A DNA stretch of 46,725 nucleotides from a virus (lineage: Duplodnaviria > Heunggongvirae > Uroviricota > Caudoviricetes): IMG/VR virus record IMGVR_UViG_2684622578_000003; one strand, 5' to 3'. The notes beneath the pieces are model-generated. The model was not told where the DNA came from and did not search any database. It was given only the letters and a program-made list of their open reading frames with translations. Both the position numbers and the translations under genes were made by a program. Each line of letters starts with the position of its first letter. Position 1 is the first letter of the stretch. Shown here piece after piece: positions 1,659 to 4,136 of this stretch.

Positions 1659-4136
1659 TTAAGAATCAGCCTGACTCGGGATCAGTTTTTGCCAGATAAC
1701 TGAAACGTATTTTGCCTGGTAACGGGCGTCATCAAGTGCATTATGGCGCTCACCTTCGAATGGAATAGCCGTTCTGGCATCGAAGTCTATGGCTTTCCCC
1801 AGCTCAACGATTGTGCGTACATCGCGATCGTTGTAGTAACGCCACGGGCAGGGGATCCCCTGCCGCTCGTATGAACGGCGCAAAATCGTGTTGTCGAAGT
1901 TGGCTCCATTTCCCCAGACCTGAACAAAAAATTCACCGGAGTTTTCGTCGATAAATTCCCGCAATTGTAACAGTGCATCATCTAACGGGATTTCATCGGT
2001 CATAATGGCAGATTGCGCTTCGCGGGATTGCTTAAGCCACCATTTAATGGTGTCCCGATCAATGACTCCGCCAGCAGTTTCCAGATCGATAGTCTTACTA
2101 AATTCCGGTCCCATATCTCCGGTTTGCGGATCGAAAAATATTGCACCTATTGAGATGATCGGGGCATCAGGATTTTTTCCCATGGTTTCAAGGTCGATCA
2201 TTAGATGGTCACACGTCCTGCTGGTGGATGTGATTTCGTGATGACCGTTCACCTTAATTGAGCGATCTGCCGTCTCGCCAGTTTCATTATCGCTATTGTG
2301 ATGCTGATTGCCGCCAGTGTTCTCCTTGTGTGGATGTTCAGCGCCTTCCATTTCCTCCGGATCATCTTCCTGAACTTCAACCTGATACTCTTCATCGAAT
2401 GTTTCTTGGTATGTTGCGTCGCCCATCACCGCGCCACAATCAGGGCAGTTGCCGCCGCCGGTCTGACCGCAGGCGGTGCAGACTTTTTCCACTTCCTGTT
2501 GCGCCACTGGTTCAGGCTGTTTCGTTTCTGGCTCGTTTTGTAACGCATTTGGACTGTTTTGTTCCGCTTTTTGGTAGTTCCGTTCCGATTCATGCTGGTT
2601 CTGGTTCACAGAATCGCGGGTCTGGATCCCCTTAACCCATTTCGGATCATTCGGGTCACTAATCCCTTCAACAAATTCACCACGTGATGCAGCAAGCAAC
2701 TTATCGGCGTCAGGCTGGCTGATATTGGCTGCCTGCATAATTTTGTTTACTTCGTCAGCGGTAACTTTTATCGGCTCTGGTTGTTCTGAATCTTCAGCGG
2801 TATCTACATTTTGCGGTAAGCCCGTGTATGTGCCATTTTTTCGGGCAAAATATTCTTCTTTTGTGATTTCAGTGGCGCCAGCAGCCAGTGCCTTATCCAG
2901 ACCAGAAAGTTTGTTTGCGCGACCGTATTTTTCTCCGTCCTTATCTGCGAAGAGGAAATAGAACGGCCCCTCACGCTCTACAGATGGTTCAGCTTCCGGC
3001 GCGGTTTCATTTTTTGGGATATCAGATACCTCAGTTTCCACTGCATCAGTTTGTGTTTCTGATGACTGGAGAACATCAACAGTGCTCAGGTCTGTTTCTT
3101 CATTCTCAAACACGCCCTTTGTCGTCAGGTATTCGCAGATATATTTGTTCAGTGCTACGGGATCTTTGTGAATGTCGATCGGACGCTCACGGACAAGGCC
3201 AAAAATAGTTTGGCGGTCGTAGCGAAGGGCATCAGGCTGTTTGCGCATTGATGCCGAGATACGCTTCCAGTCTTCGCGGTCGTTGTCGATAACTTCTTTT
3301 TTTGCCCAGCGATGGATGCTGCCGTCAATGTTTCCGGCATCCACATCACCAGGCCAGAGAGCGTAGGCCAGTTCGTCATCCAGTGTTTTCCATGTCTGCT
3401 TGTATTCGCGATGAATGGCAGCAATGACCGGGCTGATTTTTCCTGTTGAATTTTCAGTGTACTGTTGATTGGCTTTGGCGCGGGCGAGATCAACAACAGA
3501 CGTGTATTTTCCGGTTTCCTTGCGTTCACCTTCGCGACGTTTTTTCCAGATGCGCATCTCTGCCTGAATTTCGGGCCATTTAGCACCAGGAATACATTTA
3601 TGCTTAACCCACCCAATGGCGTGCAACTTAAGCTCCGGATACATGGCGTTAACTTCTGGCATTTTCATCAACGCTTCAACGATATGTCCGTCGAATGTTG
3701 CCATGTCTTCCTGCAACAATTCCTGTGCGCTAATAACCATATCAACGGTGATGTTTTCACATGTGTCGAACTTAACCATGACAGCGTTCTGTACTTCAGG
3801 GGCCAGCTTGTCAAAAGTGACGTTCATCGGATCGGATTCAGTCTCAACCGGGACAAAAGAAGCAGACTCCTCATCCCAGCGGTTTTCCTGCATATATTCA
3901 GCATCCCATGAATCGAGGGCAGGGCGGGGTATGCCAGGTTTATCCTCGCAGACAATAAATTTATAAGCGCAGTCCTGAGCAGCCGGATAATGTTCCAGGA
4001 ACTGCCAGTGAAATTTTGCTCGAGCACGGCGTTCGTCGCCAGCTTCAATGGCTGTGGCTACAGCCACAGCCACAGCGCCTTCTTCCCTTGTTGCCAGTTC
4101 GTCAGGAATAGCGGCGCAAATAAAGACTTTACTCAT
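1659..4136 (-). CDS. Large exonuclease, RecE/ExoVIII-like central region with C-terminal DEDDh-type 3'-5' exonuclease signature (full-length ydfE-like)
   Basis: 825-aa ORF; central segment [30 protein letters not shown] recalled from RecE; C-terminus has DLETMG ... HNALDDARY motifs typical of DnaQ-like exonucleases; [16 protein letters not shown] zinc-ribbon-like motif. Confidence 0.7.
   Translation of the reverse strand: [825 protein letters not shown]

Follow-up and report, generated by a model that had tools for sequence, protein, structure and literature searches.

A DEDDh-type exonuclease head on a RecE-related scaffold, encoded with no detected annealase partner in a Qin-type prophage of Escherichia coli

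Introduction

Among phage recombination systems RecET is the textbook case, and recombineering relies heavily on it; the N-terminal domain of its exonuclease, RecE, has been described as being of unknown function (PMC11611040). DexA and EcD are 3'-5' DNA exonucleases. In a 2025 study, EcD was reported to degrade T4 DNA containing 5-hydroxymethylcytosine (5hmC), not unmodified double-stranded DNA (dsDNA), and a plasmid-borne copy was reported to protect E. coli from T4 (PMC12153337). Here we analyze a gene whose product joins a RecE-related N-terminal region to a nuclease domain of the DexA kind. The gene is found in a 46,725-nucleotide (nt) stretch of DNA from a virus of the Caudoviricetes (IMG/VR record IMGVR_UViG_2684622578_000003, hereafter the window), in which a list of open reading frames (ORFs) gives it as a complete coding sequence of 825 amino acids (aa) at 1659..4136 on the minus strand.

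A sequence-only reading of the window had described this protein as an exonuclease combining a RecE-like segment with a DEDDh domain and lacking an annealase partner. Literature searches on Rv2179c together with phage, on ydfE, and on RecE together with DEDDh found no functional study of the protein. The gene bears on the function of the RecE N-terminus, and makes testable both what that N-terminus does and how recombination proceeds in lambdoid phages that lack an annealase.

Results

The protein ends in a DEDDh exonuclease domain

The Pfam family PF16473, 'Rv2179c-like 3'-5' exoribonuclease', spans aa 644-815 with an E-value of 2.4e-67 and a score of 226.5 bits against a cut-off of 27, its profile being covered at positions 2-177 of 177. 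Catalytic motifs I (Asp-Glu), II (Asp) and III (His-x4-Asp) are all present in this head. The residues concerned, D648, E650, D748, H798 and D803, do not vary across alignment A2, made with T2 DexA and six relatives, including a stand-alone homologue from a Yersinia phage and four fusions. The sequence-only reading had singled out DLETMG (aa 648-653) and HNALDDARY (aa 798-806) as DEDDh motifs and had proposed that the C-terminus is not a nuclease of the RecE type; both points are borne out, the domain search and the catalytic alignment giving the PF16473 DEDDh domain and no PD-(D/E)xK. A tblastn search of the window with the nuclease part of RecE (aa 595-866) also returned nothing. We considered whether the protein might be a true RecE and rejected this, as it scores 283.3 bits on the exoVIII equivalog model NF007259, for which the cut-off is 1269, with aa 248-627 alone matching, over the middle third of the profile (positions 271-602 of 877), and has no PD-(D/E)xK domain.

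The lone solved relative of the head found by sequence is a 227-aa 'Exodeoxyribonuclease' (8kel/8ken; phmmer E-value 1.6e-6 over aa 645-778). This relative is a T4-type DexA, since its aligned residues match T2 DexA and 8ken carries S87A/D90A. Going by family membership, the head would have 3'-5' polarity, opposite to that of RecE, and its relationship to DexA together with the phage context suggests DNA as its substrate. The domain is widespread in phages: tblastn located it in 1609 of 50,697 records, in most cases encoded by a small gene of its own. In the e14-like phage SKA5 and in Yersinia phage YeP2, such a stand-alone version of 190 aa, 55-60% identical to the head, is encoded where the early-left operon ends, a short way upstream of the integrase gene.

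The N-terminal region is a portable scaffold related to that of RecE

By BLASTP, aa 264-627 align with residues 278-591 of K-12 RecE with 39% identity overall (E-value 5e-62), and the similarity ends at RecE residue 591, ahead of the RecE nuclease domain. The likeness is therefore wider than the 30-residue segment quoted in the sequence-only reading, which is nonetheless real: it lies at aa 479-508 and shares 29 of its 30 residues with K-12 RecE. At the DNA level, blastn detects similarity to recE over 443 nt alone (gene nt 1431-1873 against recE nt 1365-1765), corresponding to aa 477-624. This block is flanked by unrelated sequence, and its end coincides with the junction just before the nuclease head. 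It holds the 30-residue segment, a zinc-knuckle-like motif and an acidic tail, and is a linker cassette recently exchanged with recE. Most relatives do not have it, and some E. coli variants, such as the 527-aa representative P0004, lack the linker entirely; the segment that drew the sequence-only reading is the most variable part of the protein. The four-cysteine ribbon noted there does exist, albeit with a CxxC-x7-CxxC spacing rather than x9, and among the representatives examined the motif is confined to the clade of the E. coli exonuclease and to K-12 RecE. The acidic low-complexity linker was likewise correctly recognized (aa 575-640, 27% Asp+Glu).

An AlphaFold2 (AF2) model of aa 1-470, built from 29 sequences, has a mean predicted local distance difference test (pLDDT) score of 77.5 and contains three confident units, which we call A (aa 1-210), B (aa 249-340) and Mid (aa 392-433). 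The Mid motif GPFYF...GRANK...EITKEEYxARKNG is kept in members of all three head classes described below, as judged by motif counts. The N-terminal 640 aa are a non-catalytic scaffold, in which A, B and Mid are joined by acidic disordered linkers with short conserved motifs, and the intact head takes up the C-terminal 180 aa (Table 1).

In order to delimit the family, aa 1-347 were compared by exhaustive HMMER searches with 1.84 billion cluster representatives. The family is narrow, since only 167 clusters were found at an E-value ≤ 1e-3. Domain mapping with phmmer showed that the N-terminal module of these proteins is either A (aa 1-235 in our protein) or the RecE N-domain (PF06630), that module B (aa 236-350) is present in nearly all long proteins, and that the Mid domain and the linker motifs are optional parts. 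The protein studied here has module A (the PF27430/PF27432 region) followed by B, and carries its C-terminal head after disordered linkers (phmmer, AF2 and precomputed Pfam). Three classes of head were distinguished: DEDDh in 12 representatives, this protein counted; PD-(D/E)xK, either RecE-type or DUF3799-like, in about 15; and a third head, with the signature KKSLTDAxKKALSxLGFSAD, in 18. The third head is a Rad52-fold single-strand annealing domain, identified by fold comparison alone, a profile search of it against PDB sequences having found nothing. Either N-terminal module can be found with any of the three heads (P0135 and P0254 being examples for the third). The N-terminal region of RecE is thus shown by this gene to be a portable scaffold, joined here to a nuclease of predicted opposite polarity and, in sister proteins, to a Rad52-type annealase. 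The scaffold-DEDDh architecture with intact catalytic residues is found at 35-65% identity in at least ten enterobacterial genera and with both types of N-terminal module, and its conservation at that depth implies selection.

Loci encoding the DEDDh fusion have no detectable annealase

The sequence-only reading had seen no RecT/Bet-like gene between xis and the dicB operon, and had concluded that this is not a classical exonuclease-annealase pair. We searched by tblastn with nine queries (RecT, Red-beta, Erf, a Rad52-like annealase, lambda Exo, Gam, Abc2, RdgC and Gp157), none of which matched in the window, nor in any of 80 IMG/VR loci that have the gene with an identity of ≥ 93%. Neither the Prokaryotic Genome Annotation Pipeline (PGAP) annotation of a near-identical prophage nor Pfam and PHROG scans of ten early ORFs revealed an annealase gene in the window. 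There is no space for one, because the gap between the stop of the exonuclease gene (1659) and the start of xis (1586) is 72 nt and ydfD, dicB and DicF lie upstream. We extended the comparison to 33 GTDB loci, of which 25 encode fusions of RecE_N, module B and DEDDh, from the genera Atlantibacter, Scandinavium, Enterobacter, Citrobacter, Pluralibacter, Leclercia, Kluyvera, Klebsiella, Dryocola and Buttiauxella. None of the annealase or nuclease-partner queries matched by tblastn in these 33 loci; an RdgC match was obtained in a single locus, one with a stand-alone gene. The diverse enterobacterial loci share a conserved short operon consisting of a dicA-like repressor gene, zero to three small ORFs, the exonuclease gene, xis and int. 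As a positive control, RecT was found immediately downstream of the gene in all 80 loci examined that carry the RecE nuclease head. The tally is thus 0 of 105 loci with a DEDDh fusion (80 close and 25 diverse) versus 80 of 80 with a RecE head, and both conclusions of the sequence-only reading stand. Within the reach of these queries, which would miss Sak4-like, Gp2.5-like or very divergent annealases, lack of an annealase partner is the rule for this enzyme and not an accident of one prophage.

The gene ends the early-left operon of a common prophage

The window is an intact Qin-type lambdoid prophage of E. coli, in which the exonuclease gene is intact as well; in a region of an E. coli genome that is 99.9% identical, the same prophage sits between rspB and ydfJ. 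The gene is also intact in the deposited complete genomes of phages PhiR42_1, HannyBb, mEp460 and Tritos, which are 96-99% identical over the matched parts. In K-12, ydfE corresponds to aa 1-257 of the exonuclease at 98% identity and is truncated by IS2E. At aa 22-27 (window 4056..4073, minus strand) the protein reads AVAVAVATA, as compared to AVAVATA in K-12 ydfE and most relatives, and the gene is 2478 rather than 2472 nt long because of this expansion of a 6-nt (Val-Ala) repeat.

The exonuclease gene is the final early-left gene ahead of xis and int. In K-12, transcription from the DicA-repressed dicB promoter has been reported to extend through ydfD, ydfE, insD7 and intQ (bioRxiv 10.1101/2024.09.21.614188), and we found no sigma-70-like promoter on the minus strand between ydfD and the exonuclease gene. 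From these two observations we infer early expression of the gene under control of the repressor.

The protein is common and already catalogued. It matches phrog_2082, named only 'exonuclease' in PHROGs, over its full length; in near-identical prophages PGAP calls the product 'exonuclease' (WP_000048364.1), and across E. coli the PGAP names are 'exonuclease' or '3'-5' exonuclease'. A survey of 5426 complete E. coli genomes located the whole gene, with a coverage of ≥ 80%, in 3537, the DEDDh head in 4048 (75%; 8111 places) and the RecE nuclease head in 1730 (32%; 1827 places). In E. coli the DEDDh head thus outnumbers that of RecE. The protein, a head-swapped variant in a narrow RecE-related family, is not categorically new.

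Table 1. Positions in the window of the parts of the exonuclease, its neighbors and RNA elements.
Feature	Position	Strand	Description and basis
Integrase gene (int)	20-1315	-	Downstream of xis; ORF list and annotations
Excisionase gene (xis)	1335-1586	-	Downstream of the exonuclease gene; ORF list and annotations
Exonuclease gene	1659..4136	-	Scaffold and DEDDh exonuclease; orthologous to ydfE, a pseudogene in Qin of K-12
DEDDh 3'-5' exonuclease head, aa 644-815	1692..2207	-	Pfam PF16473; catalytic D648, E650, D748, H798, D803; polarity as predicted for the family
RecE-like linker cassette, aa 477-624	2265..2708	-	About 85% protein and 78% DNA identity to K-12 recE
CxxC-x7-CxxC zinc-knuckle-like motif, aa 553-567	2436..2480	-	Regular expression; same motif at RecE aa 517-531
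Mid domain, aa 390-435	2832..2969	-	Two beta-hairpins and two helices; AF2 pLDDT 86-92
Acidic disordered linker, aa 346-386	2979..3101	-	AF2 pLDDT below 50; 24% Asp+Glu
Module B, aa 245-345	3102..3404	-	Helical; equivalent to RecE aa 278-360; BLASTP, phmmer map, AF2 pLDDT ~90
Module A, aa 1-210	3507..4136	-	Alpha/beta subdomain (aa 1-100), then helical subdomain (aa 113-207)
ydfD	4230-4421	-	Upstream of the exonuclease gene; PGAP of near-identical prophage, Pfam DUF1482
dicB	4418-4606	-	Upstream; PGAP of near-identical prophage, Pfam DicB
DicF small RNA	4781-4832	-	Upstream; Rfam, 62 bits
ydfA	5670-5825	-	Upstream; PGAP of near-identical prophage
dicA repressor gene	5992-6399	-	Upstream; PGAP of near-identical prophage
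sok and cspA-type leader sites	11136..11310, 14605..14997, 17506..17891	+	Rfam

Other features of the prophage

Several observations concern the remainder of the window. Between DicF/dicB and ydfA, a 205-aa ORF (5093..5710, minus strand) matches phrog_35040, of unknown function, over its full length; phage HannyBb has it as an annotated gene, PGAP leaves it out of the near-identical E. coli prophage, and in the K-12 Qin annotation the corresponding stretch from ydfA to dicF is occupied by ydfB and ydfC. The ORF at 9364..10782 on the plus strand, directly after the replication genes, gives PADLOC matches to PD-T7-1 (E-value 2.8e-69) and PD-T7-5 (E-value 2.6e-35) and is a candidate anti-phage defense gene carried as a moron; within its frame PGAP calls a shorter product of 341 aa. 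For its neighbor, a 156-aa ORF at 8789..9259, Pfam, PHROGs and PADLOC all gave no match. The ydfU gene (12236..13324, plus strand; DUF968) has weak Pfam matches to HNHc_6 (E-value 1.2e-5) and 'RecA-dependent nuclease' (E-value 0.0054), and PHROGs names its product an HNH endonuclease; ydfU is possibly a second DNA-processing gene in a phage without known recombination functions. Rfam detects a sok antitoxin RNA beside hokD, and the cold-shock genes of the prophage are preceded by two thermoregulator leaders of the cspA type. The G+C content is sharply split, the structural genes from terminase to tail fiber (~20000-41000) having 54-61% and the early, regulatory and lysis region 35-52%, with about 36-39% around 17-19 kb of the window. 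This split fits a mosaic origin of the two prophage halves.

Discussion

A possible end-processing enzyme without its own annealase

We tentatively favor, with a confidence that stops a little short of even, the view that this gene encodes a modular DNA-end-processing enzyme of the early-left operon, acting in phage recombination or replication without an annealase of its own. Since the same scaffold carries the 5'-3' nuclease of RecE or a Rad52-fold annealase in sister proteins, it may deliver the head to the same DNA substrate or partner as it does the sister heads, which would be the ends of phage DNA or intermediates of its recombination and replication. The head is expected, as a member of its family, to take nucleotides off free 3' ends, and the DEDDh form would thereby resect or trim 3' strands at those sites. 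Annealing could then be spontaneous or host-assisted, with no dedicated phage annealase, as in the XthA-dependent joining of linear DNA, where annealase-free 3'-5' resection yields cohesive ends (PMC6379578). Because the gene ends the DicA-repressed dicB transcription unit, its expression would take place on induction or infection and not in the repressed lysogen, if the regulation described in K-12 applies here.

Full-length RecE was reported to enhance linear-linear recombination beyond what its nuclease domain does (Fu et al. 2012, as cited in PMC11611040), which fits a role of the scaffold at DNA ends. An analogy is offered by Pseudomonas phage F116, whose recombination module (3983-8447) contains, in order, p19, a stand-alone Rad52-like gene; p18, weakly DUF1351-like; p16, an RNase_T-type 3'-5' exonuclease; p15, a single-stranded DNA-binding protein; and p14, annotated 'exonuclease recombination-associated'. 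In F116, then, the gene for a DEDDh exonuclease has recombination genes of the phage as its neighbors. We rejected p16 as an orthologue of the head, given that it belongs to RNase_T (PF00929), not to PF16473, and shows no BLASTP similarity to it.

Several points weigh against this interpretation. The activity, polarity and substrate attributed to the 825-aa protein derive from family membership, and PF16473 includes an RNA exonuclease (Rv2179c), so that DNA is a presumptive substrate. Resection in the 3'-5' direction leaves 5' tails, whereas phage annealases and RecA loading usually make use of other substrates. The proposed targeting of DNA ends by the scaffold is guilt by association with the sister heads, and no solved structural relative of the scaffold was found. 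In other phages a stand-alone 190-aa version is encoded at the equivalent place in the locus, so whatever the head does there it does without the scaffold. The stand-alone E. coli homologue EcD was reported to act in defense, not in recombination (PMC12153337). Finally, four annealase types were represented among our tblastn queries, and Sak4/RecA-like, Gp2.5-like or very divergent annealases could escape such a search.

A more ambitious form of the same idea, which we regard as doubtful, is that the majority of lambdoid prophages in E. coli have, where others have RecET, a recombination enzyme of reverse polarity that is independent of an annealase. The scaffold would bring interchangeable heads to one and the same DNA-end substrate or host partner, and the DEDDh form would promote end-joining or repair of phage DNA through 5'-tailed intermediates. 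If true, this would define a new class of phage recombination, explain the RecE N-terminus and provide a possible tool for recombineering. Should the heads merely have a substrate or partner in common through their scaffold, the identity of that substrate or partner would already explain the RecE N-terminus and would show how many lambdoid phages cope without an annealase or a Gam-like protein.

Alternative roles

The head might instead serve superinfection exclusion of T-even phages by degrading the hydroxymethylcytosine DNA of T4-like phages in the manner of EcD ('HREX'), thus protecting the host. We consider this unlikely. It would agree with a T4-type DexA, 8kel/8ken, being the sole solved relative of the head by sequence, with the degradation of T4 DNA and the protection from T4 reported for EcD (PMC12153337), and with the retention of the gene by 75% of the complete E. 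coli genomes, where multiple copies are frequent. Prophages often carry defense genes, and this one has a PD-T7-1-like gene. EcD is nevertheless a different protein: the termini encoded by its primers (MIDTET.../...TIPETYD) differ from those of the head (MIDLETMG.../...LIPSQADS), and these primers and peptides are absent from every locus compared, which led us to reject EcD as the C-terminal domain of this protein. The DexA residues reported to be required for 5hmC DNA, W152 and D169, align with Y768 and A782 in alignment A2, in a region where the alignment is weak (27% identity). Conversely, an aspartate lost in EcD (the tetramer-forming D90 of DexA, Ala in EcD) is kept as D720, again in a low-identity alignment. 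The end of a DicA-repressed operon, with no promoter of its own detected, is a poor place for a constitutive defense gene, PADLOC gives merely a generic match to a CRISPR-associated DEDDh (E-value 1.7e-5), and the 640-aa scaffold common to RecE and the annealase fusions is left unexplained. If the head did act like EcD, one of the commonest E. coli prophage genes would be an anti-T-even factor.

A role in counter-defense, to which we give a low likelihood, would have the exonuclease destroy, early in lytic growth, a nucleic acid of host immunity whose 3' end is free. Possible targets, each within that same low likelihood, are the multicopy single-stranded DNA of retrons, linear oligonucleotide signals, and the single-stranded DNA or RNA triggers of abortive infection. 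Enzymes of the DEDD family include degraders of oligonucleotides and dinucleotides, and phage recombination proteins interact with retrons and other defense systems. Expression from the early operon fits such a role, as does the wide distribution of the domain, as a small stand-alone gene, over many types of phage (1609 of the 50,697 records). The protein has no match to a known anti-defense family, however, and the occurrence of the same scaffold with a 5'-3' dsDNA exonuclease and RecT, or with an annealase, would be left unaccounted for.

Nucleotide scavenging or host takeover, in which DNA fragments or oligonucleotides are converted to mononucleotides for phage replication, appears improbable. 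The suggestion derives from the homology of the head to T4 DexA, whose roles are described as including the scavenging of host DNA (PMC12153337). No endonuclease partner for the breakdown of host DNA was seen in the early region, and such a role has no evident need for a 640-aa scaffold common to recombination proteins. Degradation of the host chromosome is not known from temperate lambdoid phages.

Last, that the fusion is a neutral by-product of mosaic exchange between Rac-like and Qin-like prophages, kept by hitch-hiking, is very improbable in spite of the recent exchange of the recE-like cassette (78% DNA identity over 443 nt between unrelated flanks), the linker-deletion variants of E. 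coli (P0004, 527 aa) and the pseudogene in K-12, given that the gene is intact in phages with deposited complete genomes and that the conservation of architecture and active site at 35-65% identity in at least ten genera implies selection.

Comparison with known systems

The reading that we favor, an end-processing enzyme without its own annealase, can be set against five described systems. RecE (exonuclease VIII of the Rac prophage) has in common with our protein module B and the linker, including the zinc knuckle and the LLAASRGEF...DPKW motif, a place in the lambdoid early-left operon near xis and int, and the general plan of a long non-catalytic N-terminus followed by a C-terminal nuclease. 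It differs in that its nuclease is a PD-(D/E)xK 5'-3' dsDNA exonuclease (aa 564/606-866) whereas ours is predicted to be a DEDDh enzyme of the 3'-5' type, in that its N-domain (PF06630) is unrelated to module A, and in that RecE works with RecT, which is missing from the loci studied here.

DexA (exonuclease A) of T4/T2 belongs to the same DEDDh subfamily as the head, with identical catalytic residues and ~27% identity. DexA and EcD are stand-alone proteins of ~180-230 aa, whereas the head forms the C-terminus of an 825-aa protein, which has Y768/A782 aligned with the Trp/Asp of DexA reported for 5hmC recognition and termini other than those of EcD. With Rv2179c the protein shares a match to the full PF16473 model, the founding member of which is, by its Pfam name, a mycobacterial RNA exonuclease.

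The likeness to XthA (E. coli exonuclease III) is one of function, in that a single 3'-5' exonuclease exposes complementary 5' tails, through which linear DNA ends are joined with no annealase dedicated to the task (PMC6379578). XthA belongs to the host and has no scaffold; ours is a phage protein with one, for which the same action may be proposed by analogy. The fold of XthA is unrelated to that of the head.

The fusions of the scaffold to a Rad52-type head, such as gp07 of Pectobacterium phage ZF40 (phrog_2489, annotated 'exonuclease'), agree with the protein described here in module A, module B, the Mid domain and the linker motifs and occupy the same early-left position near the integrase gene. 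Their head is a Rad52-fold single-strand annealing domain, whereas that of our protein is a nuclease.

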